Of a stretch of DNA of 64,000 nucleotides, positions 2,321-60,208 are shown one piece after another. The notes beneath the pieces are model-generated. The model had not been told where the DNA came from. It made no database searches and was given only the letters and a program-made list of their open reading frames with translations. The DNA is taken from NCBI GenBank assembly GCA_035714115.1, contig DASTMO010000078.1, positions 42,461-106,460 on the forward strand. The letters are read 5' to 3'. This stretch comes from Alphaproteobacteria bacterium. Its GTDB lineage: Bacteria; Pseudomonadota; Alphaproteobacteria; SMXQ01. Made by a program: the position numbers and the translations under genes. How positions within the stretch are numbered: the stretch's first letter is position 1; each line of letters opens with the position of its first letter.

Positions 2321-3178
2321 ATGAAGCTCGCGATCCAGCACACCACGCTCTACCGCTACGATGCGCCGGTGAACTACACGATCCAGTATCTGCGTCTCAG
2401 CCCGCGTTCCTCCGCCTCGCAGCGCGTGCTGCGTTGGAAGGTGGAGACCCCGGGCGAGGTCATCGAGATGACCGACGCCTTCGGCAACATCCTAAACGTC
2501 CTCGTCGTCGACGAGCCGCATCAGGAGATCGCCATTCGCGTCACCGGCGAGGTCGAGACGACCGATATGGCCGGCGTGGTCGGCAACGAGAACGAGACCC
2601 TGCCGCCCGGCGTCTTCCTGCGCCGCTCTCATCTGACCGAGGGCGGCGACGCCGTCGAGGATATGATCTCGCCGTTGCGCAAATTGATCGCCAAGGACCG
2701 GCTCGAAGGCCTGCACAGCCTGCTCGGCACCGTGAGCGGTGCCGTCGCCTACCGCCAAGGCGAGACCGACGCGGCCACCACCGCCGCCGACGCGCTGGCG
2801 CAAGGCTCCGGCGTCTGCCAGGACCAAGCCCATGTCTTCGTCGCCGCGTCGCGCGCGCTCGGCGTGCCGGCGCGCTATGTCTCGGGCTATCTGCATGTGG
2901 GCCTCGGGGCGTCGGACAACGCCTCGCATGCCTGGGCCGAAGCCTGGGTCGACGCGCTCGGCTGGGTCGGGTTCGACATCACCAACGGCATCTCGCCGAC
3001 CGACCAGCATCTGCGCCTCGCCGTCGGCCTCGACTATCTCTCCTGCGCGCCGGTGCGCGGCGTGCGCCGCGGCGGCGGTTCCGAGGCGCTCGACGTCACG
3101 GTGCAGGTGAACCAGGGCAGCCTCGCCGTCATGCCCATGGCGCTGCTCTCGCCCGACAGCGGGCAGGCGCAGCAATAA
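2321..3178 (+). CDS. Transglutaminase-like family protein (N-terminal Bact_transglu_N plus TGase core)
   Basis: ATG at 2321 (MKLAIQHTTLYRYDAPV), in frame with the long 1775..3178 ORF. Cys/His/Asp triad context: GSGVCQDQAH, HAWAEAW, GFDITNG. Confidence 0.8.
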   Translation: MKLAIQHTTLYRYDAPVNYTIQYLRLSPRSSASQRVLRWKVETPGEVIEMTDAFGNILNVLVVDEPHQEIAIRVTGEVETTDMAGVVGNENETLPPGVFLRRSHLTEGGDAVEDMISPLRKLIAKDRLEGLHSLLGTVSGAVAYRQGETDAATTAADALAQGSGVCQDQAHVFVAASRALGVPARYVSGYLHVGLGASDNASHAWAEAWVDALGWVGFDITNGISPTDQHLRLAVGLDYLSCAPVRGVRRGGGSEALDVTVQVNQGSLAVMPMALLSPDSGQAQQ

Positions 3179-3269
3179 GAGCCGCCGCGCGGCGCTTTCT
3201 CCTAGAGCCGGCGCAGCCCCTCCGTTATCCTGCCGGCCCGTTCCCCCGCCTTCGGATGCGCCCTCCGCC

Positions 3270-4001
3270 ATGACCTACGCCGTCGGTTTCCTACTCGACT
3301 CCGGACTTCTGTTCGCCGCCGACACGCGCACCAACGCCGGCGTCGACCATGTCTCGACCTTCCGCAAGCTGACCGTCTTCGAAAAGCCCGGCAGCCGCGT
3401 GATGACGCTGCTGTCGGCCGGCAACCTTGCCATCACCCAGGCGGTGATCGAGGAGCTCAACGTCGGCATCGCCGCCAAACGCAAAGAGAATCTGTTGAAC
3501 GTCAAGACGATGTTCGCCGCCGCGCGCCTGGTCGGCGCCGCCGTGCGCAAGGTGCATGACGTCGACGCTGCGGCGCTGCGCCAGCAGGACACCGATTTCA
3601 ACGTCTCCTTCATCTTCGGCGGCCAGATCAAGGGTGAGCGCCATCGTCTGTTCCAGATTTATTCGGCCGGCAATTTCGTCGAAGCCGCGCCCGACAGCCC
3701 CTATTTCCAGATCGGCGAGAACAAGTACGGCAAGCCGATCATCGATCGCGTCATCACCTACAAATCGAGCCTGATGGAAGCGGCGAAATGCACGCTGCTC
3801 TCGTTCGATTCGACGATGCGAAGCAACGTATCGGTCGGCCTGCCGATCAACATGCTGACTTATCGCAAGAACAGCTATAAGCGCGGCTTCGAAGTCGAGG
3901 TCGACGCGGCCAACGATTATTATCGCAGCGTCGGCGGCTACTGGAGCGATGCCTTGCGCTTCGCGTTCCAGGAAATGCCCAACCCCGACTGGAAGATCTG
4001 A
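3270..4001 (+). CDS. Proteasome-type (Ntn-hydrolase-like) protease, COG3484 family
   Basis: 243 aa, MTYAVGFLLDSGLLFAADTRTNAG. This is the fourth member of the conserved CP-ATP-grasp/alpha-E/TGase cassette. Confidence 0.65.
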   Translation: MTYAVGFLLDSGLLFAADTRTNAGVDHVSTFRKLTVFEKPGSRVMTLLSAGNLAITQAVIEELNVGIAAKRKENLLNVKTMFAAARLVGAAVRKVHDVDAAALRQQDTDFNVSFIFGGQIKGERHRLFQIYSAGNFVEAAPDSPYFQIGENKYGKPIIDRVITYKSSLMEAAKCTLLSFDSTMRSNVSVGLPINMLTYRKNSYKRGFEVEVDAANDYYRSVGGYWSDALRFAFQEMPNPDWKI

Positions 4002-4003
4002 GC

Positions 4004-4585
4004 ATGCTGCGACGGCTTTACGACTGGACGATGTCGCTCGCCTCGGGGCGGCATTCCGAACGGGCGCTGGCCGGCGTCTCATTCGTCGAAAGCTCGTTCT
4101 TTCCGATTCCGCCGGACATCCTTTTGATCCCGATGATCATCGCCCAGCCGCAGAAGGCTTGGCGGCTGGCGACCATCGCCACCATTTCCTCGGTGGTCGG
4201 CGGCTTCCTCGGCTACGCCATCGGCTATTTCCTGTTCGAAGCCGTCGGCCAGCCGATTCTGCAGTTCTACGGCATCGTCGACAAATACGACGAGCTCAAG
4301 CATCTGTTCGACACCTGGGGCGCCTGGATCATCATCGTCAAAGGCATGACGCCGATCCCCTACAAGTTCCTGACCATCACCGCGGGCGCGCTGCATTTCG
4401 ACCTGCTGGTCTTCACGATCGCCTCCGTGATTTCGCGCGGCCTGCGCTTCTTCCTCGTCGCCGCGCTCTTGTGGAAATTCGGCGAGCCGATCCGCGACTT
4501 CATCGAAAAGCGTTTGACGCTGGTCCTCACGCTCGGCCTTGTGATTTTGATCGGCGGCTTCGTCGTGATCAAATATCTGATCTGA
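4004..4585 (+). CDS. YqaA/DedA-family inner membrane protein
   Basis: 193 aa with multiple hydrophobic helices and the SFFPIPPD motif typical of the DedA/YqaA (SNARE-associated) family. Confidence 0.7.
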   Translation: MLRRLYDWTMSLASGRHSERALAGVSFVESSFFPIPPDILLIPMIIAQPQKAWRLATIATISSVVGGFLGYAIGYFLFEAVGQPILQFYGIVDKYDELKHLFDTWGAWIIIVKGMTPIPYKFLTITAGALHFDLLVFTIASVISRGLRFFLVAALLWKFGEPIRDFIEKRLTLVLTLGLVILIGGFVVIKYLI

Positions 4586-8041: not shown

Positions 8042-8946
8042 GGCTTTTCCCCTTTGGCCGCGTCGAATTCGGCCATGTCGCCGGACGCGACTCCACCGAC
8101 CCAGCGCCTGAGGCCGGCGACGAGCGCGAGATACTCCGGTTCGTCCGGGCCGATCAATCCCTCGCGGATCAGAAAATCGATGATCACGAGGTTGCAGTTG
8201 AACTTGAAATCGAAGCTGCCGCGCACCGTTTCCATCACGCGCTCGATCGGCCACAACTCGAAGCCGGCACTTTCGCCGTCGTTCGGCTTGGGGCGGAAAT
8301 CCGCCGGCAGCTCAAGATCGTAAACGAAAAGAATATCGGGCCGCAGGCCGCCATCGCGCTCGCAGCAATAGGTGATGGCGCTGGACGGCCGCGCGCGCGT
8401 CGCCAGCGCCGCCGGAATGCTGGCCTCTTCATCGCATTCCTTCACCAGGGTATCGAACACGCCATGACCAAAGGAGATGCCGCCGGCGCAAAGATTGTCG
8501 AGCTCGTTGGGATAGGTCGCCTTGCTGGCGCTGCGCCGCGACACCCACATGCTGAGTTTCGCACCGTCGCGCACGATGCCGTTGAGATGCACGCCGAGCG
8601 AAGTCACGCCGAACTTGGGCGCGGCGGCGCGCTCGACGCGCAGCAAAGGCTCCGCGCCGAAACGCGGCGCCACGGCATAGAACTCGTCGCGCCAGGCCGT
8701 CACGGTGCCGTCGGCGCGAAAGGCATCGGTGACGTCCTTCATCGCGGCGCTGCGCGCGTCGAAGCCGGCGAGCGCCTCGCTCATGCGCACGGCATCTTCG
8801 ACGACGGCGAAGACTTTCGGAAAAGCGGCGAGACGCGGCGCGAAAGCCCGCGCGATCCAACCGACACGCTGCCCCGCAACGATGAAGGGGAGATAGCGCG
8901 CCGGATCGTGATCGTTGCAGACGCGGATGTGATCGAGAAAGGCCAT
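8038..8946 (-). CDS. NUDIX hydrolase with N-terminal DUF4743-like domain
   Basis: 302 aa. Nudix-box-like region around GGISFGHG...E. 4-bp overlap with the downstream hydrolase gene. Confidence 0.65.
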   Translation of the reverse strand: MAFLDHIRVCNDHDPARYLPFIVAGQRVGWIARAFAPRLAAFPKVFAVVEDAVRMSEALAGFDARSAAMKDVTDAFRADGTVTAWRDEFYAVAPRFGAEPLLRVERAAAPKFGVTSLGVHLNGIVRDGAKLSMWVSRRSASKATYPNELDNLCAGGISFGHGVFDTLVKECDEEASIPAALATRARPSSAITYCCERDGGLRPDILFVYDLELPADFRPKPNDGESAGFELWPIERVMETVRGSFDFKFNCNLVIIDFLIREGLIGPDEPEYLALVAGLRRWVGGVASGDMAEFDAAKGEKP

Positions 8947-11740: not shown

Positions 11741-12613
11741 ATGATCGAGAAGGTCGGCGTCGTCGGCGCGGGACAAATGGGCAGCGGCATCGCGCATGTG
11801 ATGGCGCAGTCCGGCATCGACGTGATGCTCGTCGACATCAACGCGCAGCAGCTCGAGAAAGCGCTCGCCACGATCCGCAAGAACATGGAGCGCCAGGTCG
11901 CCAAGGGCGTGCTGAAGGCGGATGACGTGCCGCTCGCCCTCGGCCGCATCAAGACCAGCGGCGACATGGCCGATCTGGGCGATCGCGACCTCGTCATCGA
12001 GGCCGCCACCGAGAACGAGAAGATCAAGACGGCGATCTTCAAGGATCTCATCGGCCATCTGAAAGGCGACTGCATGGTCGCCTCCAACACCTCCTCGATC
12101 TCGATCACGCGCCTCGCCGCCGCCACCGACCGGCCGGACAAATTCATCGGCATGCATTTCATGAATCCGGTGCCGGTGATGAAGCTGGTGGAGATCATCC
12201 CCGGCATCGCCACGGCCAAGAGCACGCTCGAATCCGTGCGCACGCTCGCCGAGAGGATCGGCAAGTCGCCGGTCGCCTCGGAAGATTACCCGGCCTTCAT
12301 CGTCAACCGCATCCTGCTGCCGATGATCAACGAAGCGGTCTACGCGCTCTATGAGGGCGTCGGCACCGTCTCGGCCATCGATACGGCGATGAAGCTCGGC
12401 GCCGCCCATCCGATGGGTCCGCTGGAGCTCGCCGACTTCATCGGCCTCGACACCTGCCTCAGCATCATGCAGGTGCTCTACGAAGGCCTCGCCGACAGCA
12501 AATACCGCCCCTGCCCGCTGCTGGTGAAATATGTCGAAGCCGGCTGGTATGGCCGCAAGAGCGGCAAGGGCTTCTACGATTATTCCGGCGATAAGCCCGT
12601 TCCCACGCGCTGA
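11741..12613 (+). CDS. hbd: 3-hydroxybutyryl-CoA dehydrogenase
   Basis: Start at [18 protein letters not shown] (Rossmann GxGxxG). The 3HCDH N and C domains are recognisable. Confidence 0.85.
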
Positions 12614-28066: not shown

Positions 28067-30484
28067 ATGGCGTCGGTTGCAGCGATTTCCCAGCAGATCT
28101 GGGACATGAAGTACCGCCTCAAGGACGCGCAGGGCGTCGCTGTGGATAAATCCATCGAGGGCACCTGGCGCCGCATCGCCGACGCGCTCGCCGAAGCCGA
28201 GCAGCCCGAGGGCCGCAAAGCCTGGGCCGACAAGTTCTACGGCGCGCTGGAAGACTTCGCCTTCCTGCCGGCCGGACGCATCATCGCCGGCGCCGGCACG
28301 GGCCGCTCCGTCACCCTGTTCAACTGCTTCGTGATGGGCACCGTGCCCGACGCCATGGGCGGCATCTTCGCGCACTTGCGCGAAGCGGCGCTGACCATGC
28401 AGCAGGGCGGCGGCATCGGCTACGACTTCTCAACGCTCCGCCCCAAGGGCGCGCCGGTGAAGGGCGTCGGGGCAGACGCCTCGGGCCCGCTCTCCTTCAT
28501 GGACGTGTGGGACGCCATGTGCCGCACCATCATGTCCGCCGGCAGCCGCCGCGGCGCGATGATGGCGACGATGCGCTGCGACCATCCCGACATCGAGGCC
28601 TTCATCGAGGCCAAGCGCGAGCCGGGCCGCCTGCGCATGTTCAACCTCTCGGTGCTGGTCACCGACGCCTTCATGGAAGCGGTGAAGGCCAACCTGCCGT
28701 GGGACCTGACCTTCAACGGCACGGTGTTCCGCACCGTCGAGGCGCGCGGCCTGTGGGACAAGATCATGCACGCCACCTACTCCTACGCGGAGCCGGGCGT
28801 GATCTTCATCGACCGCATCAACCGCCGCAACAACCTGCACTATTGCGAGACGATCAGCGCCACCAACCCCTGCGGCGAGCAGCCGCTGCCGCCCTACGGC
28901 GCTTGCCTGCTCGGCTCGATCAACCTCGCCCGCCTCGTCGTCGATCCCTTCGAGGAGACGGCGCGGCTCGACATGAACCGCCTGCGCAAGCTCGTGCCGC
29001 TCGCCGTGCGCATGATGGACAATGTGGTCGACGTCTCGAAATTCCCGCTCGAGGAGCAGACCCGCGAAGCCCAAGCCAAGCGCCGCATCGGCCTCGGCGT
29101 CACCGGCCTGGCCGACGCTCTCATCATGTGCCGCGCGCGCTACGGCTCGGCCGAGGCGCTGCGCCTGACCGGCGAATGGATGGGCGCGATCGAGCGCGAG
29201 GCTTATTTGGCTTCCACCGAACTGGCGCGTGAGAAGGGCGCTTTCCCGCTGTTCGACAAGGACGCCTATCTCTCGGGCGACACCATTCTCGGCCTCGACG
29301 CCGACGTGCGCGAGGCCATCAATAAGCACGGCATCCGCAACGCGCTCCTGACCTCCATCGCGCCGACCGGCACCATCTCGCTGCTCGCCGACAACGTCTC
29401 GTCGGGCCTCGAGCCGGTGTTCAGCTTTACCTACACGCGCCGCATCCTGCTGCCCGACGGCACGCGCCAGGAAGAGGAGGTGAGCGATTACGCCTACCGC
29501 CTGTTCAAGCGCCTGAAGGGCGACAACGTGCCGCTGCCCGATTATTTCGTCGACGCGCAGGTGCTCAAGCCCGCCGACCATGTGGCGATGCAGGCCGCCG
29601 TGCAGAAGCATGTCGACAGCTCGATCTCCAAGACGATCAACGTGCCCGTCGACATCGACTTCGAGGAATTCAAGGACGTCTACCTGAAGGCTTACGAGAC
29701 CGGCTGCAAGGGCTGCACGACCTACCGGCCGAACGACATCACCGGCTCGGTGCTCGAAGTGAAGCCGGCCAAGGACGCCGAGGAAGGCCAGCAGGAGCTG
29801 CCGCTCGACAAGCCCAAGGCGGCGCGCCATGCCGACCCGTACGAGGCCGGCGGCGTCGTCTACATGACCCAGCCACTCGACCGGCCGGGCGCGCTCGAAG
29901 GCCGCACCTACAAGCTGCGCTGGCCCGAGAGCGAGCATGCCATGTACATCACGATCAACGACGTGGTGCAGGACGGCCGTGTGCGCCCCTTCGAGATTTT
30001 CGTGAACTCGAAGAACATGGAGCATTTCGCTTGGACCGTCGGCCTGACGCGCATGATCTCGGCGGTGTTCCGCCGTGGCGGCGACGTCTCCTTCGTCGTC
30101 GAAGAGCTCAAAGCCGTGTTCGATCCGCGCGGCGGCCAATGGATGGACGGGCGCTATGTGCCGTCATTGCTCGCCGCCATCGGCGACGTAATTGAGAAAC
30201 ATATGATCGCCATCGGCTTCCTGCCCAACCCGCAGGAAAAGCGCGACGGCCTGTTCGACCGCCAGGTGGTGAACCTGAACGAGGCGCGCGGTCACGAAGA
30301 CCATGATCATGGCCACGAGCATCACGGCCACGAGCATCACGGCCACGATCATTCGCACAATCATTCTCAGGGCAAAGCCGCTGATGGCCGTTTCCGCCAA
30401 TGCCCGAAATGCGGCCAGGCCAGCCTGATCAAGCAGGAAGGCTGCGACAGCTGCCTGAGCTGCGCCTACTCGAAGTGCGGGTGA
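28067..30484 (+). CDS. nrdJ: Class II (adenosylcobalamin-dependent) ribonucleotide reductase
   Basis: 805 aa. RNR active-site region NPCGEQPLPPYGACLLGSINL, a C-terminal CPKCG...CDSCLSC zinc ribbon, and a His-rich HEDHDHGHEHHGHEHHGHDHSHNH insertion before it. Confidence 0.9.
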   Translation: MASVAAISQQIWDMKYRLKDAQGVAVDKSIEGTWRRIADALAEAEQPEGRKAWADKFYGALEDFAFLPAGRIIAGAGTGRSVTLFNCFVMGTVPDAMGGIFAHLREAALTMQQGGGIGYDFSTLRPKGAPVKGVGADASGPLSFMDVWDAMCRTIMSAGSRRGAMMATMRCDHPDIEAFIEAKREPGRLRMFNLSVLVTDAFMEAVKANLPWDLTFNGTVFRTVEARGLWDKIMHATYSYAEPGVIFIDRINRRNNLHYCETISATNPCGEQPLPPYGACLLGSINLARLVVDPFEETARLDMNRLRKLVPLAVRMMDNVVDVSKFPLEEQTREAQAKRRIGLGVTGLADALIMCRARYGSAEALRLTGEWMGAIEREAYLASTELAREKGAFPLFDKDAYLSGDTILGLDADVREAINKHGIRNALLTSIAPTGTISLLADNVSSGLEPVFSFTYTRRILLPDGTRQEEEVSDYAYRLFKRLKGDNVPLPDYFVDAQVLKPADHVAMQAAVQKHVDSSISKTINVPVDIDFEEFKDVYLKAYETGCKGCTTYRPNDITGSVLEVKPAKDAEEGQQELPLDKPKAARHADPYEAGGVVYMTQPLDRPGALEGRTYKLRWPESEHAMYITINDVVQDGRVRPFEIFVNSKNMEHFAWTVGLTRMISAVFRRGGDVSFVVEELKAVFDPRGGQWMDGRYVPSLLAAIGDVIEKHMIAIGFLPNPQEKRDGLFDRQVVNLNEARGHEDHDHGHEHHGHEHHGHDHSHNHSQGKAADGRFRQCPKCGQASLIKQEGCDSCLSCAYSKCG

Positions 30485-30499
30485 GAAGTCCCTAGATCG

Positions 30500-30592
30500 T
30501 CACCCTCGGGTTTAACCCGAGGGTCCATCTCTCCAGCGCTTATCTTTTTGAAGCATGGATGCTCGGGTCAAGCCCGAGCATGACGGTTTTTT
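30500..30592. repeat. REP-like double-hairpin intergenic element, copy 1 (shares an identical 33-nt core with the copy at 33775..33857)
   Basis: Hairpin 1 is accctcggg/cccgagggt. The identical hairpin 2 is catggatgctcgggtcaagcccgagcatgacg, followed by a T-run. It lies between the convergent nrdJ and cyt b561 genes. Confidence 0.6.
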
Positions 30593-30600
30593 GACGAGGC

Positions 30601-31179
30601 TCAGCCCTTGATCGTCCACATCTTGCGCAGGATCCCCTCGCCCAAGAGCTGATGCAGCAGGGCCATGCCCGCATGGCCGATCAGATAGGCCCACATCACG
30701 TTGGCGAGCGCGCCGTGCAGCTCGGCGAAGCTATGGCCGAGGCCCGTCATCTTGCCGGTCGCATCCATCTGCCAGAACACGACGCTGCCGGTCACGGCGA
30801 GATAGGTCGCGAGCAGCAGGCCGAGACCATGCACGGCATTGGCGAAGGCGGTGTGAACGGTGGCGTCGGGCATTTCCAGGCGGCGCAGCGCCTCGCCATA
30901 GGCGCGCAGGTCGGCGAAGATCGCGCTCCGGCGCGCCGCCGAAAACCACGGGAAGAATGCGCCGACGCCCGCCTCGCTGCGGCGGACCAAGGTCCAGAGC
31001 CAGAACAGGATGACGATGGCGAGGCTGGCCATGCCGACCCATTCATGCAGCAGGAACGGAGTCTCGATCGGACGGCGCGGCGGATGCGGCTCCTCCATCA
31101 CGAGGCTGACGAGCAGCTGGAACAGGATGGCGCAGGCCAACAGGGCATGCAGCGCTTTGGTGACGAGACTGTGACGCAT
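30601..31179 (-). CDS. Cytochrome b561 family membrane protein (CybB-like)
   Basis: 192 aa, four TM helices with conserved His positions (HALLACAIL, HEWVGMASL, HGLGLLL, HAGMALLH). Confidence 0.7.
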   Translation of the reverse strand: MRHSLVTKALHALLACAILFQLLVSLVMEEPHPPRRPIETPFLLHEWVGMASLAIVILFWLWTLVRRSEAGVGAFFPWFSAARRSAIFADLRAYGEALRRLEMPDATVHTAFANAVHGLGLLLATYLAVTGSVVFWQMDATGKMTGLGHSFAELHGALANVMWAYLIGHAGMALLHQLLGEGILRKMWTIKG

Positions 31180-31290
31180 GGCGCGGCTCCAGGAACGGAC
31201 GATCTACCCGCCAGCGATGCTAATCCCGCGCCGCGATGCCGCCCAGCGCGATGCGCGCGCCTGAGAGTGAATCGCGCGGATTCTTAGCGT

Positions 31291-31830
31291 TCAGCCGCAG
31301 CGTCCGTCGACTTCGCGCTTCAGTTTTTCCAGGTAAGGATCGCGGATGCCGAGCTGCGTCAGATGGCTCAGCGTGTTGTCGAGATAGTCGCGGTTCGGCC
31401 CGCTCGCGCCGCAAGCGCCGAGGATCAGCTCGGCCTTTTCGCCGAGTTCGAGCTTGCCGACATATTGCAGATGGCTGCGGTCGGTCACGTAGGTCCAGGC
31501 CGAGGCGATGCGGCGGTGGGTCGGCTCGCCGACCTCGATGGTGACGCGGCGTCGGAAATAGACGCCGGTGATCAGCTCGCGCGCATCCAGCGTTTCCAGC
31601 GCCTGCGCCATGTCGGCCTCGGCGACATGGAAGGCGACGCCGCGGCAAGAGCCGCCGCGGTCGAGCCCGAGCACCAGGCCGGGCTTATCCGGCGTGCCGC
31701 GGTAATGTTTCGACTGCACGCAGAAGGCGCGGTGCCAGCCGCGCAGGTAAGCCGGTTCCGATTCGATGTGGGGAAATCCCGGATTCCACATCAAGGAGCC
31801 GTAACCGAAAATCCACATATCCGACGACAT
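31291..31830 (-). CDS. Gamma-glutamylcyclotransferase, ChaC family
   Basis: MWIFGYGSLMWNPGFP (YGSL motif) and GGSCRGVAFHV. Start could also be the upstream in-frame ATG at 31881. Confidence 0.75.
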   Translation of the reverse strand: MSSDMWIFGYGSLMWNPGFPHIESEPAYLRGWHRAFCVQSKHYRGTPDKPGLVLGLDRGGSCRGVAFHVAEADMAQALETLDARELITGVYFRRRVTIEVGEPTHRRIASAWTYVTDRSHLQYVGKLELGEKAELILGACGASGPNRDYLDNTLSHLTQLGIRDPYLEKLKREVDGRCG

Positions 31831-31984
31831 GGCGGGCGATACACCAGATGAAGTGGAGCGCCGGAGCCGAACATCCTGCATGCGATCTTATGCAGCGCCT
31901 TCGACTCCGCCGCGCTTTCGGCTAGTATAGCCCTTGCCCGCTTTGTCCGCATCCATTGGCCGTTCCGTCGCAAGCACCGCGTTC

Positions 31985-33034
31985 ATGACCAACGTCACCC
32001 GCCGCCTTCTCATCGCGACGCTCATCGTCTTCCTGCTGGCGGGCCTCGGCCTCGCGGGCTTCTGGGTCTATGGCGCCGACAAGCTGCGCGCCAACGTGAA
32101 CGTTTGGGCCGAAAGCTGGCGCGCCGAAGGCAACGCCGTCGCCTACAAGCCGTTCGCCGTCACCGGCTTCCCGCTTTATTTCCGCGCCCGGCTCGACGAT
32201 TTCGCCATCGCCGGCGGCGGCGCGACGTCGCCCTGGCGCTGGCAGGCGCCGGCGCTGCGTCTGCGCGCCTCGCCCTTCGCGCCGACCCGCGCGCGCGCCG
32301 ACTTCACCGGCGAGCACAAGGTCGCCGCCGAATTGTTCGGCGTGCCGGTCGCCTTCACCGCCGCCACCAAAGACGGCATCGCCCGCGTGCAGCGACGCGG
32401 CGGCCAATATGACGGCGGCCTGGAAATGCGCGAGTCCTCGCTCGTCATCGAAGGCGTCAGCGGAATTTTCACGCTGAAAGAAGCGCTGATCGACGCCTTC
32501 CACATCAATCGCGTGCCGAACCATCTGACGGCGAGCGCCGGCCTGACCGTCGCGCTCGACGATCTGACCCTGCCCGCCGCCCTGCTGCCCGGCCCGCTCG
32601 GCGCGCGCATCGACGCACTCAACCTCGAAGCCAAGGTGATGGGCGGCATCGGGCCCAACTTGAACGTCGCCAGCGTCGCCGCCTGGCGCGACGACGGCGG
32701 CACGGTCGAGGTCGACAGCTTCACGCTGCGCTGGGGTCCCTTGCGCATCAAGGCCGAAGGCACCATCGCGCTCGACAAGGATTTGCAGCCGCTCGCCGCC
32801 TTCACCGCGACCATGACCGGCTTCGCCGAGACCATCGATCTGCTGGTCGCTCAGGGCGCCTTCAACGCCGAGGACGCCGCCTCGGCCAAGATGCTGCTGT
32901 CGCTGCTGGCCAAGACGCCGCTGACCGGCGGCGCGCCGGAAATCGCCGTGCCGCTGACCGTGCAGAACCAGCGCCTGTTCGTCGGGCCGGTGCCGCTGTT
33001 CACGCTGCGGCCGATCATCTGGCCGGCCACGTGA
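31985..33034 (+). CDS. DUF2125-like membrane-anchored protein
   Basis: Start placed at MTNVTRRLLIATLIVFLLAGLGLAGFW (signal anchor). Otherwise a conserved alphaproteobacterial protein of unknown function. Confidence 0.5.
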   Translation: MTNVTRRLLIATLIVFLLAGLGLAGFWVYGADKLRANVNVWAESWRAEGNAVAYKPFAVTGFPLYFRARLDDFAIAGGGATSPWRWQAPALRLRASPFAPTRARADFTGEHKVAAELFGVPVAFTAATKDGIARVQRRGGQYDGGLEMRESSLVIEGVSGIFTLKEALIDAFHINRVPNHLTASAGLTVALDDLTLPAALLPGPLGARIDALNLEAKVMGGIGPNLNVASVAAWRDDGGTVEVDSFTLRWGPLRIKAEGTIALDKDLQPLAAFTATMTGFAETIDLLVAQGAFNAEDAASAKMLLSLLAKTPLTGGAPEIAVPLTVQNQRLFVGPVPLFTLRPIIWPAT

Positions 33035-33759
33035 ACGCGCCGGATCGCCCAGGGACCGCCATGATGACGCCCGCCGAAGACCTGCCGCCGGATCAGGCGC
33101 CCAAAGAGGCGGTGAGCGAGCATCCCAAGCGTCCCTCGCATATCAAGACCTCCGAAGTGCTGCAGCGCCTGGCCGAGGACGTGAAGGGCCAGGAAAGCAT
33201 CACCGTCGGCTGGCTCGTCGCCCGCCTCGGCACCCGCGCCTTCGGCGCGATCATCCTGTTGATGGCGCTGCCCAACATCACGCCGCAGATCCCCGGCATG
33301 TCGACGATCTTCGGCCTGCTGATCATGCTGCCCGCCGTGCAGATCATGGTCGGCCTGTCGCAGATGTGGCTGCCGAGCTTCCTGGCGCGCCAGACCATGC
33401 CGGCGCCGACCGTCGGCAAAATTCTCGAATTCGCCGTGCCTTGGGTTCAGCGAATGGAAAAGCTGATCAAGCCGCGCTTCGAATTCCTGATGAGCCCGCC
33501 GTGGGAGAACATCGTCGGCGCCGCCGTGCTGTGGCTCGGCTTCATCCTGTTCCTGCCGATCCCCGGCGCGAACTTCCTGCCGGCGCTCGCCTGCGCCTTC
33601 ATGGCGCTCGGCATGCTGGAACGCGACGGCCTGTTCATCATGGCCGGCCTCGGCATCGCCGTGGCGTCGATGGTGGTGCTGGCGATGATCATCGGCGGCC
33701 TGTGGCACGTGCTCGACCAGCATTGGCACACGGTGATCGATTTCTTCACGCGCTGGTAG
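33031..33759 (+). CDS. exoD: Exopolysaccharide synthesis protein ExoD family
   Basis: 242 aa, multi-pass membrane protein with N-terminal segment SHIKTSEVLQRL....GAIILLMALPN. Confidence 0.7.
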   Translation: MNAPDRPGTAMMTPAEDLPPDQAPKEAVSEHPKRPSHIKTSEVLQRLAEDVKGQESITVGWLVARLGTRAFGAIILLMALPNITPQIPGMSTIFGLLIMLPAVQIMVGLSQMWLPSFLARQTMPAPTVGKILEFAVPWVQRMEKLIKPRFEFLMSPPWENIVGAAVLWLGFILFLPIPGANFLPALACAFMALGMLERDGLFIMAGLGIAVASMVVLAMIIGGLWHVLDQHWHTVIDFFTRW

Positions 33760-33774
33760 CCGCACAATAAGCCA

Positions 33775-33857
33775 TCACCCTCGGACTTGATCCGAGGGTC
33801 CATGTCGAAAAAGAAAAACCTGAAACATGGATGCTCGGGTCAAGCCCGAGCATGACG
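33775..33857. repeat. REP-like double-hairpin intergenic element, copy 2
   Basis: Hairpin 1 is accctcgga/tccgagggt, with a compensatory base-pair change relative to copy 1. Hairpin 2 is identical to copy 1. It lies between the convergent exoD and tyrC genes. Confidence 0.6.
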
Positions 33858-33869
33858 ATGAAGAACGGC

Positions 33870-34829
33870 CTAAGCCTGGCCGGCCTTGACTATGCTGCGG
33901 CGAATCTCACGCGTCTTGGCGAACTTCTTCTGCAGCTTATCGCCCTGATCCCAGCGGATCGCGCGCTGCATGGCCGACAAATCCTCATTGAGGCGGCCCA
34001 GCATCTCGAGCACGGCATCCTTGTTGTTCAGGAAGATGTCGCGCCACATCACCGGATCGGAGGCGGCGATGCGGGTGAAATCGCGAAAGCCGCTGGCGGC
34101 GTATTTGATCACTTCGCCGCGCAGATGCTTCTCCAGCTCCGTCGCCGTGCCGACGATGGTGAAGGCGATCAGGTGCGGCAGATGCGAGGTGATCGCCAGC
34201 ACGCGGTCGTGATGCGCCGCGTCCATCACGTCGACGTTCGAGCCGATGGCCTCCCAGAAAGCGCGCAGCTTCGCCGTCGCCTTCGGATCGCCCTTGGGCA
34301 ACGGCGTCAGGATCACCCAGCGACCCACGAACAGTTCGGCGAAGCCAGAGGTCGGCCCGGAATTTTCCGTACCGGCGAGCGGATGGCCGGGCACGAAATG
34401 CGCATGCTTGGGCAGGAACGGCGCCATGTCCTTGACGACCGTCTGCTTGACCGAACCGACGTCGGAAACGATGGCGCCCGGCTCGAGATGCGGGCCGATG
34501 GCTTGAGCCACCGCCTTGCACGCGCCGACCGGCACGCAAACGATGACGAGATCGGCGCCCTTCACGGCCTTGGCCGGATCGGCGACGGCGCTATCGATAA
34601 AGCCCAGCTTCTTGGCGGTGTTGCGCGTCGCGGCCGTGCGCGCCGTGCCGACGATCTCGCCGACCAGGCCGTTCTTCTTCGCCGCCCAGGCGATGGACGA
34701 GCCGATATGGCCGAGGCCGATCAGCGCCAGCTTCTTGAACAGCGGCGCGCGTTTGGCGGCTTTCTTCTTGGCCGGGGCTTTCTTGGCGAGCTTCTTCGCG
34801 GGCTTCTTGGCGGGCTTTTTTACCATCAC
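33870..34829 (-). CDS. tyrC: Cyclohexadienyl/prephenate dehydrogenase with lysine-rich N-terminal tail
   Basis: GLIGLGHIGSS Rossmann motif after an N-terminal MMVKKPAKKPAKKLAKKAPAKKKAAKRAP segment. Confidence 0.8.
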   Translation of the reverse strand: MMVKKPAKKPAKKLAKKAPAKKKAAKRAPLFKKLALIGLGHIGSSIAWAAKKNGLVGEIVGTARTAATRNTAKKLGFIDSAVADPAKAVKGADLVIVCVPVGACKAVAQAIGPHLEPGAIVSDVGSVKQTVVKDMAPFLPKHAHFVPGHPLAGTENSGPTSGFAELFVGRWVILTPLPKGDPKATAKLRAFWEAIGSNVDVMDAAHHDRVLAITSHLPHLIAFTIVGTATELEKHLRGEVIKYAASGFRDFTRIAASDPVMWRDIFLNNKDAVLEMLGRLNEDLSAMQRAIRWDQGDKLQKKFAKTREIRRSIVKAGQA

Positions 34830-35953
34830 AGGCTCTTCTTGAAATCAGCAAGCGCGGCGACGACCGCCTTCATCTCCGCTTCCAGGCCGATGGTGATGCG
34901 CAGGCTCTCCGGCAGGCCGTATTTCGGCACCTGGCGCACAATGATGCCGCGCTCGGTGAGGAACCTGTCGGCCGCTTCCGCCTGCGCCGCGTCGGCGAAG
35001 CGCACCAGCACGAAATTCGCGACGCTCGGCACGACGCGATAGCCGAGCTTGGTCAGTTCCGCCGTCAGCCAGATGCGCCAGCGCTCGTTATGGTCGCGCG
35101 CCCGGCTCAGATATTCGACGTCTTCCACCGCGGCGATGCCGGCGGCCTGCGTCGCCGAGCCGACGTTGAACGGCATGCGGATGCGATTGAGATGGTCGAT
35201 CATGCGCGGCGTGCCGTAGGCCCAGCCGAGGCGCAGGCCGCCCATGGCGTAAATTTTTGAAAAGGTGCGCGTCATGATGACGTTGTCGCCCTTGCCGACC
35301 GACGCATCGACCAGCGTCGCGCCGGCGTCGTAATCATTGGCGGTGACGAACTCGGCATAGGCCGCGTCGATCACCAGCACGACATTGTCCGGCAAGGCGG
35401 CGCGCAGGCGCTTCATCTCCGTCGCCGACAGGTAGGTGCCGGTCGGATTGTTCGGATTGGAGATATAGACCAGCTTGGTCTGCGGCGTGACCTTGGCGAG
35501 CAATTTATCGACATCGCTCGTCAGGTTCGTCTCGCCCGCCGTGACCGGAGTCGCGCCGACCGACAAGGCGGCGATCGGATAGATCAGGAAGCCGTGCTCG
35601 CTATAGAGCACTTCGTCGCCGGGGCCGGCATAGGCGCGCGCGAGCAGGCCGAGGATTTCGTCCGAGCCGGCGCCGCAGATGATGCGGTCGGCATCGAGGC
35701 CATGACGCGCGCCGATGGCTTCGCGCAACGCGACCGCGCCGCCGTCGGGATAGCGGTGCATCGCGGCGGCGGCCTTGTTGTAGGCGGCGACGGCTTTGGG
35801 GCTGGGGCCGAGCGCGCTCTCGTTCGACGACAGCTTCATCGGATTGGCGTTGCCGGCGATCTTCGACTTGCCGCCGACATAGGCCTCGATGGCGTCGATG
35901 CCGGGCCTTAACTCAGGGAGGCGCAGCTCATCGTCCTTAGCGTTGTCGCTCAT
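34826..35953 (-). CDS. hisC: Histidinol-phosphate aminotransferase
   Basis: 375 aa class II aminotransferase. SKIYAMGGLRLGW PLP-lysine region. Confidence 0.85.
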   Translation of the reverse strand: MSDNAKDDELRLPELRPGIDAIEAYVGGKSKIAGNANPMKLSSNESALGPSPKAVAAYNKAAAAMHRYPDGGAVALREAIGARHGLDADRIICGAGSDEILGLLARAYAGPGDEVLYSEHGFLIYPIAALSVGATPVTAGETNLTSDVDKLLAKVTPQTKLVYISNPNNPTGTYLSATEMKRLRAALPDNVVLVIDAAYAEFVTANDYDAGATLVDASVGKGDNVIMTRTFSKIYAMGGLRLGWAYGTPRMIDHLNRIRMPFNVGSATQAAGIAAVEDVEYLSRARDHNERWRIWLTAELTKLGYRVVPSVANFVLVRFADAAQAEAADRFLTERGIIVRQVPKYGLPESLRITIGLEAEMKAVVAALADFKKSL

Positions 35954-45315: not shown

Positions 45316-46674
45316 TCAGCGGCGTTTGGTTGCGGGCGTCTTGCGAGCGGGAGCCTTCTTGGCCGGCGTTTTCTTGGCCGGCGTTTTCTTGGCCGGCGCC
45401 TTCGCGGTTTTCGTCTTCGGCGTCATGCCGTCGAGCCAGTCGGCCAGCGGCTCCCAGCTTTGCGCGCGAGCCTGACGGCCGACGATCATCGCCACATGGC
45501 CGCTCGGCACCTTGACCGCCGTCGCCTTCGGCAAGGCAGCGGCGAGGGCCGCCGAAGAGGCCAGCGGCACGATCTTGTCCTGCTGCGGCATCAGCAAAAG
45601 CGCCGGCTTGTCGCAGCGCGCAGGATCGATCGTCTCGCCGGCGACGCGCCAGGCGCCGTTCATCGGCGCGTTCTGGCCGTACCAGCCGACGAGGCATTCG
45701 GCGGCGACCTTGGCGGCGAGCGGCACGCCATCGTTCACCCAATCTTCCAGCGCGACGAACAATTCGCCGTTTTCTCCGGCCTGTTGGCTCTTGGCGAAGG
45801 CGCGGTATTTGCGCCCGACCAGATAGGGATCGAGGCTGGCGAACATGGCCTGCAGCAGATCGACGGGAAATTCCGCCAAACTTGCGAAGGCCGCCGTCAA
45901 CGTCGCCGCATTGGCGGCATCGAGCGGCGCTTGGATCGGCGCGCCCTCCGCCTGGAAATCCCAGGGCGTCGCCAGCAATGCAAGCGCCGAGACCTTGTTC
46001 GGATGCAGCTGCGCCAAGGCCAAAGCGAGATTGCCGCCCATGCAATAGCCGATCACCGCCAGAGGCTTGCCCGCAGCTTTCGCCGCTGCGTCGAGCGCGC
46101 CCGCCAATCGCCCGGCGATGTAGTCGGTGAGATCGAAGCCGCGCTCGATCTCGCCCGGCGCGTCCCAATCGACCAGCAACGGGCGATGGCCGCGCGCGGC
46201 GAGATAGCGCAGCAAGCTGGTCTTGCCGGTGAGGTCGAGCACATGGCCGCGATTGACCAGCGACGGCACGACGAGAACCGTCGAACCCGTATTGCGCGTC
46301 CCGTAATCGAGCAGGCGCGTTGTGCCCTCGCGCCAGAGGACCGGCGGCTCTTTCAGCGAGCGGCGATAGGGATGGGCGCGATAGGCCGAGACGCCGGCGG
46401 CGAATTCGAGAAAGCGGTCTTCGCCGGCATGATCGACGGCGGCGGCAAGATCGTCACCGCTTACCGCGCCGAGAGCCTTTTGCAGCGCTGCCGCCTCGGC
46501 GGCGAGCGGCGCCGGCCAGGGAAAGCCGCCGCTGGCGATCAGCGGCAGAGCGGCGCGCAGGCTTGCCCAAGCCGTTCCCGCGCTCGCCAGATGCAGCGCC
46601 AGCGGGCGCGGACCCAGCCGATGCGCTGCCCGGCTGGGCTTTGGGCTTTTCTTCTGTGCGGGACGGCGCGCCAT
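45316..46674 (-). CDS. phaC: Poly(3-hydroxyalkanoate) synthase PhaC (catalytic core; N-terminus apparently displaced into another frame), with C-terminal lysine-rich AKP-repeat tail
   Basis: Lipase box with Cys nucleophile ([11 protein letters not shown]). LIASGG and [13 protein letters not shown] match the LIESGG and PPCINKYYILDL motifs as I recall them from Cupriavidus necator (Ralstonia eutropha) PhaC, i.e. alignment against a remembered, not searched, reference. Asp/His downstream. Tail is [26 protein letters not shown]. Confidence 0.7.
45354..45405 (-). repeat. 15-bp tandem DNA repeat (ggccggcgttttctt, about 3 copies) encoding the PAKKT repeats of the PhaC tail
   Basis: Direct repeats visible at 45361-45405. 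Confidence 0.5.
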
Positions 46675-57356: not shown

Positions 57357-58544
57357 ATGAGCCGCGCGCCGCGCCGCACCGCCCGCAACAAGCGCCCGAA
57401 AAAGACCGGGGCGCCGGCCGCCACGCGCCTGATCCGCACCGCGCGCGAGGAGGATATTCCCGCCCTGTTGATGATCGAGCATCAGTCCTTCCCGACCGAC
57501 CGCATCTCGCAACGCTCTTTCCGCTACATGCTGACCAAGGGCAACGCCTGCACCCTGGTCGAGGCCGACCGTGCGAGCGGCGAGATCCGCGGCTACGCCA
57601 TGGTCTCCTTCAACCGCTCGACCTCGCTGGCGCGGCTCTATTCGATCGCGGTGGCGCCGCGCTGGCGCGCCAAGGGGGTCGGCCGCGCCCTGCTGCGCGC
57701 TGCCGAAGAGGCCGCGCGCGAGAAATCCGCCGCCTACATGCGCCTGGAAGTGCGCGCCGAAGACAAAGACACCCAGGCCTTCTATCGCAGCATGGGCTAC
57801 AAGCCCTTCGGCACCCACAGCCAGTATTATGACGACGATGCCGACGCCGTCCGCATGGACAAGATCATCGCGCCCGGCCTCGCCCCCAATGTCACCCGCG
57901 TGCCTTACTACCGCCAGCGCCTCGACTTCACCTGCGGCCCGGCGGCGGTGATGATGGCGATGCATGCGCTCGACCGCGACAGGCCGATGACGGCGATCGA
58001 GGAGCTCCGCATCTGGCGCGAGGCGACCACGATCTTCATGACCCAGGGCCATGGCGGCACCAGCGCGCAAGGCCTGGCCCTCGCGGCTTGGAAGCGCGGC
58101 TTCGATGTCGAGCTGCATACCAACGAGCGCGGCGTGCCCTTCGTCGAGAGCGTGCGCAGCGAGCTCAAGCGCGACGTGATCCGCGCGGTCCACCAGGACT
58201 TTCTCGACGAATTGGCGAAGACCAAAGTGCAGCTCGTGCCGCGCGCCCTGAGCTTCAAGCAGCTCCGCGAGAAGTTCGATGCCGGCGGCATCCCCATCGT
58301 GCTGGTCTCCTCCTACCAGTTCGACCGGCGCAAGGAACTGCATTGGGTTGTTGTGACCGGCTACGACGACACCTATGTTTACGTCCACGATCCTTTCGTC
58401 GACGTCGCCGAAGCCAAAAGCCAGACCGACCGCATGCATATTCCGGTCCCGCAACGCATTTTCGACCGCATGGCGCGCTACGGCTCGCGCCATCGCAAGG
58501 CCGCGCTGATCGTCAAGCCGCGCCGCAAGACGAGCGCGCCATGA
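57357..58544 (+). CDS. GNAT N-acetyltransferase fused to a C39-like papain-fold cysteine peptidase domain
   Basis: N-terminal GNAT (RLYSIAVAPRWRAKGVGRALL, motif A). C-terminal DFTCGPAAVMMAMHAL (catalytic Cys) and HWVVVTGYDD (His). Confidence 0.75.
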   Translation: MSRAPRRTARNKRPKKTGAPAATRLIRTAREEDIPALLMIEHQSFPTDRISQRSFRYMLTKGNACTLVEADRASGEIRGYAMVSFNRSTSLARLYSIAVAPRWRAKGVGRALLRAAEEAAREKSAAYMRLEVRAEDKDTQAFYRSMGYKPFGTHSQYYDDDADAVRMDKIIAPGLAPNVTRVPYYRQRLDFTCGPAAVMMAMHALDRDRPMTAIEELRIWREATTIFMTQGHGGTSAQGLALAAWKRGFDVELHTNERGVPFVESVRSELKRDVIRAVHQDFLDELAKTKVQLVPRALSFKQLREKFDAGGIPIVLVSSYQFDRRKELHWVVVTGYDDTYVYVHDPFVDVAEAKSQTDRMHIPVPQRIFDRMARYGSRHRKAALIVKPRRKTSAP

Positions 58545-60136: not shown

Positions 60137-60208
60137 GTCCACGCGCAGCGCCGCATCCTAGGTCCACGCGCAGCGCGGCCTCGTAACAGCTCTGGGTAAC
60201 AGCTCTGG
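60118..60208 (+). repeat. Tandem duplications at the 3' end of the RimK-like gene: 25-bp unit x2.5 (60118-60180) and 13-bp unit x2 (60183-60208)
   Basis: gcgcagcgccgcatcctaggtccac is repeated directly. The first copy contains the stop codon. gtaacagctctgg is repeated directly. Confidence 0.7.

Follow-up and report, generated by a model that had tools for sequence, protein, structure and literature searches.

Two palindromic elements between convergent genes

The 64-kb window considered here, i.e., the entire stretch of alphaproteobacterial DNA that was analyzed, harbors two short palindromic elements, copy 1 (positions 30498 to 30585) and copy 2 (positions 33773 to 33857). Each of these lies between two convergently transcribed genes, as had been claimed in the initial annotation of this DNA and as was corroborated by a reading of the sequence and by Pfam matches of the flanking gene products (Table 1). 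Judged by their sequence and architecture, both elements are routine copies of an already known kind, namely, the published head-to-head (HH) heterodimers of CGTC-tagged repetitive extragenic palindromes (REPs).

The presence of the two elements far exceeds what would be expected by chance. The block that forms the 3′ hairpin, CATGGATGCTCGGGTCAAGCCCGAGCATGACG, is present at exactly two places of the window and had no match in 100 shuffled versions of it; the two occurrences are identical, as previously reported, and measure 32 nt rather than the 33 nt that had been given. The 5′ hairpin, TCACCCTCGG..CCGAGGGTCCAT, was found at only these two sites of the window, the pair that closes its stem being G-C in copy 1 and A-T in copy 2. 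Each element had been described as a combination of two different hairpins, a description which must be revised, as the 3′ hairpin, once reverse complemented, represents the same 31-nt unit as the 5′ hairpin. This unit, CGTC-A(C/T)(C/G)CTCGG(G/A)-CTTGA-(C/T)CCGAG(G/C)(G/A)T-CCAT, is composed of a CGTC tag, a 9-bp stem, a 5-nt loop, and a CCA(T) tail. Each element is an inverted pair of this single oriented unit, with the CGTC tags facing outward and the CCAT tails pointing toward a spacer of 23 to 26 nt. The two partners are designated unit A, CGTC-ACCCTCGG(G/A)-loop-(C/T)CCGAGGGT-CCAT, and unit B, the sequence of which is given for unit B1 in Table 1.

A covariance model derived from an alignment of 51 diverse units recognized exactly four units in the 64-kb window (45 to 57 bits; E values of 1e-11 to 1e-15), the next best match scoring 15 bits. 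Because the opposite strand of the four units scored only 11 to 15 bits under the same model, the unit is strongly oriented. As single-stranded DNA (ssDNA), each unit is predicted to form a hairpin of -10 to -12 kcal/mol and the dimer to adopt a three-way junction, the third stem of which is provided by CCATG/CATGG. As RNA, either strand is predicted to form a pair of hairpins or a single long one (-43 to -51 kcal/mol; z scores of -5.7 to -7).

Table 1. Units, spacers, and associated features of the two elements, followed by the genes that flank them
Feature	Position	Strand	Description
Unit A1	30498..30528	+	Tag CGTC at 30498-30501, 9-bp stem ACCCTCGGG/CCCGAGGGT, loop TTTAA, tail CCAT; 44.7 bits, E 9e-12; ssDNA hairpin -11.6 kcal/mol, z -6; matches Ssn-related motif (SRM) pattern
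Spacer, copy 1	30529..30554	.	26 nt between CCAT and ATGG tails, CTCTCCAGCGCTTATCTTTTTGAAGC; canonical '..CCAGCGCT..' spacer type
Unit B1	30555..30585	-	CGTC-ATGCTCGGG-CTTGA-CCCGAGCAT-CCAT; 55.2 bits, E 4e-15; matches SRM pattern
T6 run	30587..30592	+	1 nt after unit B1 tag, 5 nt after its stem; terminator-like site 30559-30581 (+)
Unit A2	33773..33803	+	Degenerate tag CATC, stem ACCCTCGGA/TCCGAGGGT, loop CTTGA, tail CCAT; 48.2 bits, E 7e-13
Spacer, copy 2	33804..33826	.	23 nt between CCAT and ATGG tails, A-rich on +, T-rich on -; not canonical spacer
Unit B2	33827..33857	-	Identical to B1; 56.8 bits, E 1e-15; matches SRM pattern
Class II ribonucleotide reductase gene	28067..30484	+	Stop 13 nt before copy 1; PF02867 (E 2e-126), PF00317, PF12637
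Cytochrome b561 gene	30601..31179	-	Stop 15 nt after copy 1; PF01292
ExoD gene	33031..33759	+	Stop 13 nt before copy 2; PF06055
Prephenate dehydrogenase gene	33870..34829	-	Stop 12 nt after copy 2; PF02153, PF20463

Relationship to CGTC-tagged REPs and Ssn-related motifs

CGTC-tagged REPs were catalogued by Di Nocera 2013 (BMC Genomics 14:522, PMC3733652) as mainly alphaproteobacterial repeats, with representatives in A. tumefaciens, S. meliloti, Bradyrhizobium, R. palustris, and others, the unit of which consists of a CGTC, often TGTC, tag, an 8- to 9-bp stem, a 4- to 5-nt loop, and a CCA tail. As detailed in the same study (PMC3733652), these REPs are present in tens to thousands of copies per genome, are sited between convergent or unidirectional open reading frames (ORFs), and mostly form HH dimers in which the tags lie outside and the 20- to 100-bp spacers are conserved, with heterodimers being the predominant form in families 2 and 3. 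In the window, the tag was found in units A1, B1, and B2, and the stem, loop, and tail were found in all four units, which are arranged as HH heterodimers at convergent sites. With the CGTC-3 type REPs of the 2013 study, the window elements share the tag, the 9-bp stem, the 5-nt loop, the CCA tail, the organization as HH heterodimers, the spacers, the siting, and an alphaproteobacterial host, and nothing structural differs. Minor points of distinction are that the window A units carry C in place of the usual T at the second stem base, that the tag of A2 (CATC) and the loop of A1 (TTTAA) are mutated, and that the 2013 paper knew no associated enzyme. The earlier suggestion that the elements belong to a REP family is supported, in that they fall within the widespread CGTC-tagged REP superfamily, whose stem covaries.

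SsnA, as characterized by Chenal 2025 (Nat Commun 16:2388, PMC11893778), is a 94-aa single-domain GIY-YIG protein which binds the hairpin repeat NTS (CGTCATTCCCGCG...GGGAATC) exclusively as ssDNA and in a strand-specific manner and which cuts just upstream. Cleavage by SsnA is governed by the three bases that precede the palindrome and binding by the C that follows it, and mutation of Y6, Y17, and E64 inactivated the protein (PMC11893778). Genes for such enzymes (ssn) are typically flanked by SRMs, for which the pattern HGTCWYN(0-2)YYVSBRHN(0-5)WNVSBRGN(0-2)RNCYNB was published, and the N. wadsworthii variant NTSvar (CGTCATACTCGGGNNNNNCCCGAGTATC) is cleaved as ssDNA by the Ssn of that organism (PMC11893778).

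The SRM pattern is matched by three of the four window units, with A2 failing at the G of its tag alone (CATC), and approximately 0.9 chance matches to this pattern are expected per window. A further match, at positions 35119 to 35150, lies within coding sequence, is not recognized by the unit covariance model, and is considered to be at chance level. In addition to conforming to the SRM pattern, the window unit is nearly identical to NTSvar, and the GTC before the stem and the C after it are conserved in both. Moreover, the invariant columns of the unit alignment, T6, C7, A8, C31, and C32 (corresponding to the tag and the first C of the tail), coincide with the bases reported to be critical for SsnA cleavage and binding; G5 is present in at least 90%, and the tail CC is invariant in the 51 aligned units.

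Distribution, arrangement, and covariation of the unit

A scan of GTDB species genomes with the unit pattern, in which the variable stem and loop positions were left free, identified at least 120 loci (L numbers denote fetched loci). Among the matches listed, to which the counts of this paragraph and all counts over 145 units refer, the hosts of the family include Mesorhizobium, Rhizobium, Agrobacterium, Shinella, Ensifer, Dongia, Kiloniellales, Rhodospirillaceae, and others, i.e., mostly members of the Rhizobiales and Rhodospirillales. Plus-then-minus pairs, the type seen in the window, are dominant (66, versus 16 minus-then-plus pairs and 2 tandem pairs), and the spacer lengths in the fetched loci cluster at 13 to 15 nt and at 23 to 26 nt. 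The tag is CGTC in 97 of the 145 units and TGTC in 42, while the loop is CTTGA in 144, the TTTAA loop of window unit A1 being the sole exception. The stem sequences of the two window A units, ACCCTCGGG and ACCCTCGGA, represent common family types, being found in 14 and 23 units, respectively.

The unit alignment, in which both-side changes were apparent in eight of the nine stem pairs, was selected for pairing; an unbiased test of covariation was provided by those stem positions which the scan had left unconstrained. The three pairs concerned are Watson-Crick in 143, 139, and 143 of the 145 units, as opposed to 85 to 93 (maximum, 103) following shuffling, which shows that the stem of the family covaries. 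Non-Watson-Crick pairs are few, with five G-T pairs versus five others in the 145-unit set and two versus 11 in the alignment, counts which are too small to judge selection at the RNA level.

When 107 elements were grouped by gene context, 51 were located between convergent, 51 between tandem, and 5 between divergent genes, compared with 97, 324, and 102, respectively, for all intergenic regions of the same loci, these counts being based on crude gene calls from GC content at the third codon position (GC3). As published, the family clearly prefers gene 3′ ends.

Contigs retrieved from Logan that encode an identical cytochrome b561 (L001 to L005) stop inside units on both sides, with L001 spanning copy 2 to copy 1, a pattern typical of assemblies interrupted by a multi-copy repeat, which suggests that the source sample contains one. 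The 64-kb window contains four units, and the closest metagenome-assembled genome (MAG) contains seven in the 21-kb locus L129 and more in L074, L097, and L116.

Clusters of dimers were observed in two further loci. Within L112 (positions 2927 to 3700), two dimer types, ATCCTCGGG/ATGGTCGGG and ATGGCCGGG/ATCACCGGC, alternate in an array with a period of approximately 150 nt, in the manner of a cluster of bacterial interspersed mosaic elements (BIMEs). Locus L019 (positions 3281 to 4424; contig DATLJB010000232.1, labelled as a Terriglobia MAG) encompasses five HH heterodimers of the type ATGCCCGGA/ACCCTCGGA in 1.2 kb, with near-identical spacers of 25 nt, the second and third dimers being separated by an ssn-like gene. 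As this is a typically alphaproteobacterial element in an Acidobacteriota-binned contig, the contig may have been mis-binned or horizontally acquired.

Association of the unit with genes for GIY-YIG nucleases

An ORF of L057 specifies a GIY-YIG protein (Pfam PF01541; E value, 9e-12), and a tblastn search with this protein showed that the loci retrieved by the DNA motif alone contain eight homologues. The corresponding gene fills the space between a plus-strand and a minus-strand unit in L057, L125, and L073 and is accompanied by one remaining intact unit in L093 and L049. In L111 and L023, the hairpins on either side of the gene are CGTC hairpins of other kinds, which suggests that enzyme and flanking hairpin co-vary. 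In L057 (positions 2003 to 2338), the upstream unit provides, within its CCATG tail, the ATG of the ssn gene, the stop of which lies 1 nt from the downstream tail, such that the gene exactly fills the dimer.

Metagenomic sequences were subsequently scanned for two head-to-head units 300 to 330 nt apart, a pattern which holds no coding information, and a GIY-YIG ORF of 94 to 103 aa was present between the units in 24 of 24 stretches, one of these ORFs being frameshifted. The interval between the units is 314 to 317 nt in the L057, L125, and L073 cassettes and 311 to 330 nt in the 24 metagenome cassettes. Window unit B is identical to the units that flank the gene on both sides in L057 and in L135 to L138, while L143 and L154 represent B-ssn-A cassettes, in which the order of the units is that of the window dimers on the minus strand. 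The motif-ssn-motif architecture of the SsnA system was recovered for exactly the unit types of the window, with proteins of 94 aa that retain Y6, Y17, and E64 (11 of 11). In contrast to the SsnA system, the window contains gene-less dimers only, and its host is an uncultured alphaproteobacterium that is not known for natural transformation, the role described in Neisseria; in Chenal 2025, no kinship between gene-less inverted pairs and the cassette is described. Searches with the GIY-YIG protein returned only spurious WD40 matches in the PDB sequence collection and, in NCBIfam, no specific model and a sub-threshold match to a group I intron endonuclease; a GIY-YIG regular expression produced two spurious matches only in the window.

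It is, in our assessment, probable that the window elements are HH heterodimers of CGTC-tagged REPs, equivalent to SRMs, which act at the level of DNA and which are most likely relatives of the unit-ssn-unit cassette. An inverted doublet of a palindromic unit with the ability to fold as one long hairpin is also reminiscent of REPINs in the strict sense, i.e., REP doublets mobilized by a REP-associated tyrosine transposase (RAYT; an IS200/IS605-type Y1 HUH enzyme), which the present elements further resemble in being multi-copy, intergenic, and vertically retained at orthologous sites (PMC3116915). Indeed, the REPIN-RAYT system (Bertels & Rainey 2011; Nunvar 2010) shares with the present one the inverted REP doublet with a short spacer and the ability to form a long hairpin, the presence of the same REPs on both sides of a single-copy enzyme gene, and long vertical persistence. 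However, a GTAG tag and an HUH Y1 transposase with a covalent intermediate are found there, as opposed to a CGTC or TGTC tag and a hydrolytic GIY-YIG nuclease here, and because the enzyme is of the latter kind, the chemistry of copying cannot equal that of REPIN-RAYT. The gene between the units was a GIY-YIG gene in every case examined, the loci not having been scanned with a Y1 transposase profile, and no transposase was seen in the densest cluster, L091 (11 units), where the flanked gene is a FAD monooxygenase-like ORF. Furthermore, CGTC-tagged REPs were reported to "lack a dedicated transposase," no tyrosine transposase gene being flanked by CGTC units (Di Nocera 2013, PMC3733652), and Alphaproteobacteria possess few or no tnpA-Y1 homologues (PMC6006769). 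That the elements are RAYT-mobilized REPINs is considered very improbable.

RNA-level interpretations

As has been proposed for the REP/BIME sequences of Escherichia coli, the elements could alternatively function as 3′-end signals in RNA, either as intrinsic, possibly bidirectional, terminators or as mRNA-stabilizing hairpins. Such a function would accord with the location of both copies 12 to 15 nt from convergent stop codons, with the enrichment of the family at gene 3′ ends, and with the strong RNA folds predicted for both strands. It would also accord with the distribution of T residues in the window, where the copy 1 hairpin is followed by T6 on the plus strand, the B hairpin of copy 2 is followed by a T-rich spacer on the minus strand, and both spacers are T-richer than the canonical spacer of relatives. 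However, approximately 90% of 324 units lack a T-tract on either side; a T-tract follows the outer side in 5.6% (T4 run) to 12% (5 T in 8) and the inner side in 2 to 4% of cases, compared with 3 to 6% of background 16-mers. The proposal in the initial annotation of a bidirectional terminator family is not sustained by these frequencies, nor by the window itself, in which T-runs are confined to one strand per copy. Likewise, both copies had been said to end at or near a T-run, a statement which is accurate for copy 1 (30587 to 30592) and incorrect for copy 2, as no T-run follows its 3′ hairpin.

The best-conserved bases of the unit, the tag GTC and the tail CC, are unpaired and strand-specific, and the reverse strand scores low, neither of which would be of use to a terminator; moreover, the same units bracket a nuclease gene in all of the metagenome stretches cited above, and Rfam provides no match. 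A GC-rich hairpin followed directly by a U-tract, as is typical of intrinsic terminators, was not found among the window units, with only B1 on the plus strand coming close. It is possible that the B1 hairpin and the T6 run constitute a weak intrinsic terminator for the ribonucleotide reductase gene, which would not be a property of the family, and the T-rich spots may add local termination on one strand each (the plus strand in copy 1 and the minus strand in copy 2). As an account of the elements themselves, 3′-end signaling in RNA is judged unlikely.

A stable structure and a covarying stem would also be expected of a small noncoding RNA gene or of a cis-regulatory RNA, the initial annotation having suggested a small structured RNA. 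Rfam, however, returned no family at the gathering threshold in the whole window and only chance-level matches in a relaxed scan of positions 30300 to 34100, a region in which no promoter-like site was detected. The dimer as a whole is palindromic, the element is symmetric with respect to the two strands, the bases conserved most strongly are unpaired and orientation-specific, and the family occupies hundreds of unrelated genomic contexts; we accordingly attach next to no credence to an RNA gene or riboregulator.

Orthologous sites in related genomes

Homologues of the DUF2125 protein encoded between the two elements place the source organism in an uncultured alphaproteobacterial lineage, and four syntenic relatives, L126, L128, L129, and L131, were fetched, which share approximately 80% protein identity. 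In L129, which derives from the same MAG as L074, L097, and L116, dimers are present at both orthologous sites, the flanks of which have diverged. At the ExoD site of this locus, where the right flank is recognizably orthologous, the A unit equals that of the window apart from the tag, including the A-T closing pair, the spacer is of the canonical type (TTATCCAGCGCTCAGGAATTTGCGGC), and the B unit is interrupted; at the reductase site, the A unit exhibits a G-C closing pair. The interruption of the B unit (L129 positions 11860 to 11905) consists of approximately 30 nt with the capacity to form a hairpin (GCCGCTCGGCCGAAGGCCGACC...).

Because the orthologous L129 sites already differ in having G-C at one and A-T at the other, this difference did not arise in place between the window copies and predates the split from L129. 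The compensatory g-to-a/c-to-t pair that had been noted between the two copies preserves pairing but does not reflect change from one window copy into the other.

L128 possesses an empty intergenic region of 25 bp between the reductase and cytochrome genes, while L126 and L131 contain decayed remnants together with dimers of another subfamily. Target-site inference from the empty L128 site and the filled sites was impossible, as the intergenic sequences are too diverged. On the evidence of these comparisons, the elements are old at these sites, with the units being kept, the flanks and spacers drifting, and the sites being repeatedly occupied.

At the L126 ortholog of the copy 1 site (positions 8532 to 8562), a single unit tagged on both sides (CGTCACCCTCGGGCTTGACCCGAGGGTGACG) was observed, which may represent a collapsed dimer. 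The second dimer subfamily, detected at L126 J2, L131 J1/J2, and L129 J1, has the stems ATGCCCGCA, ATGCCCGGG, and ATGGCCGGA and a CTTGT or CTTGG loop. In L126 and L131, it displays a conserved extension of 10 to 12 nt (CATCCTCAAT) to the left of the tag and nothing conserved to the right, and because conservation of the extension is confined to the left, the repeated unit of this subfamily is asymmetric.

Units that are identical at orthologous sites while their flanks and spacers diverge suggest constraint or homogenization, and it is conceivable that the elements are host-domesticated DNA sites for another protein or process (gyrase or IHF, as at BIMEs, recombination, or replication pausing), in which case the link with ssn would be incidental. 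E. coli REPs bind gyrase and IHF, according to literature cited in Di Nocera 2013 (PMC3733652). The REP/BIME sequences of E. coli share with the present elements palindromic units, alternating orientation, a location at gene 3′ ends, and possible effects on mRNA ends, but they belong to a different superfamily (GTAG tag) and are associated with different proteins (RAYT, gyrase, and IHF). Nothing in the present data points to such proteins, the lack of an element at the first site of L128 indicates that it is dispensable there, and the invariable association with ssn in the metagenome stretches, coupled with the coincidence of the conserved bases with SsnA determinants, renders an incidental link unlikely. 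Overall, domesticated sites of this kind are regarded as quite unlikely.

Gene-less dimers and the ssn cassette

The preferred interpretation of the elements as DNA-level relatives of the unit-ssn-unit cassette leads to the question of how the gene-less and gene-bearing forms are connected. The ORF of the L154 cassette ends in ...GGC CTG AGC GGC GGA TGA AT/GGACCC, and gene-less dimers have spacers that match the 3′ end of the L143 and L154 ORFs (GGCCTGAGCGGCGGATGAAT) when aligned from an identical anchor position. The spacer of L116 (ending in ...GCCTGAGCGCTGGATGAAT/GGACCC) agrees with the L154 ORF end at 17 of 19 positions, that of L070 at 15 of 19 positions at the 3′ end and 9 of 12 at the 5′ end, and that of L097 at 12 of 19 positions with a 10-nt exact core, each of these comparisons ranking first of 297 cassette windows. 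For copy 1 of the window, the end of the spacer agrees with the L154 cassette end at 10 of 19 positions (rank 3 of 297); on the minus strand and with its tail bases included, this spacer is 30 nt in length, like that of L116, to which it is identical at 19 of 30 positions. The same junction type was present at at least five loci of one MAG (L074, L097, L116, L129 J1, and L129 J2).

Because the spacers keep both ends of the ORF interval, it is suggested that the gene-less dimers arose from the cassette by internal deletion; the deleted copies would have kept approximately 10 nt of the cassette 5′ end and approximately 19 nt of the 3′ end of the ssn ORF, including the stop. One internal deletion followed by multiplication of the gene-less product represents the simplest reading, as with REPINs and miniature inverted-repeat transposable elements (MITEs). 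We tentatively propose, while stopping short of calling it probable, that the gene-less B-~30 nt-A dimers are internally deleted, non-autonomous copies of the 371-bp B-ssn-A cassette which were multiplied in trans, in a REPIN- or MITE-like manner, by a hydrolytic GIY-YIG nuclease. As in MITEs, both ends of the gene-bearing element, including the terminal inverted structures, are retained in the gene-less one, and many copies have a deletion junction in common. The present elements differ from MITEs in that they involve no transposase, showed no target-site duplication, and have hairpins at their ends in place of simple terminal inverted repeats. We found no statement of a link between cassette and dimer in Di Nocera 2013, in Chenal 2025, or in the further literature searched.

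With respect to mechanism, it is envisaged that each unit, once the strand becomes single stranded, would fold as a hairpin of 9 bp, with the GTC tag unpaired on one side and a C-rich tail on the other, and that this combination of hairpin shape and sequence would form the target of small GIY-YIG Ssn nucleases, with cleavage on the immediate 5′ side of the tag. The gene-less dimer would most likely be a non-autonomous relative of the unit-ssn-unit cassette, produced by internal deletion and then multiplied, and its copies would persist at gene 3′ ends because insertions there would do little harm. Any terminator or mRNA-end effect, for instance, of the T-runs in the window, would be secondary and local.

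A number of points weigh against this scenario. No ssn homologue was detected in the 64-kb window, for which the L057 protein served as the tblastn query, or across the 45 kb covered of the closest MAG (L074, L097, L116, and L129), and we infer, rather than observe, that an Ssn is encoded in the source genome and cuts the window units. The GIY-YIG proteins are presumed members of the Ssn family (CDD cd10448) on the basis of Pfam, their size, the residue positions, and the flanking motifs, and the CATC tag of unit A2 should impair cleavage. As regards the spacers, that of copy 2 bears no similarity to the cassette end (5 of 19 positions), and an unconstrained local alignment of all spacers with all cassettes was noisy, with only L116 standing out (z score of 6.6). 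An anchored end test across all subfamilies yielded 13 of 58 cases at p ≤ 0.05, p-values which are inflated by shared AT tail bases. The spacer-to-cassette homology appears clear only in the A/B subfamily, and the link is drawn exclusively from the orientation-fixed comparison within this subfamily. Insertion of ssn into a pre-existing dimer would generate the same pattern as deletion from a cassette. Finally, a hydrolytic GIY-YIG nuclease is not a transposase, we know of no mechanism by which the dimers could be copied, and copying by Ssn or by any other factor is itself presumed.

The elements of the window should be annotated as CGTC-REP/Ssn-related-motif dimers and not as a new class of RNA or terminator, an assignment which matters little for the window. 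The family, on the other hand, fills intergenic space in many Rhizobiales and Rhodospirillales and has been catalogued since 2013, while its partner enzyme was identified only in 2025. The ends shared by gene-less dimers and the nuclease cassette offer a testable handle on how such repeats multiply, and derivation by deletion, if true, would answer the question posed in 2013 of how transposase-less CGTC repeats arise and spread.

Other repeats in the window

Tandem repeats of a different nature were also observed in the window. A perfect 25-nt tandem duplication (CGCGCAGCGCCGCATCCTAGGTCCA; 2.4 copies) at positions 60117 to 60208 extends across the stop of the plus-strand ORF at positions 58088 to 60136 and is directly followed by a perfect 13-nt duplication (GTAACAGCTCTGG x2); together, these repeats look like the outcome of recent slippage or duplication at a gene end. 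Repeats of 15 nt and 12 nt, at positions 45356 to 45398 and 34764 to 34817, respectively, encode Lys/Ala/Pro-rich repeats, one set (PAKKT...) being located at the C-terminus of the 452-aa product of the minus-strand ORF at positions 45316 to 46674 and the other at the 5′ end of the prephenate dehydrogenase ORF.

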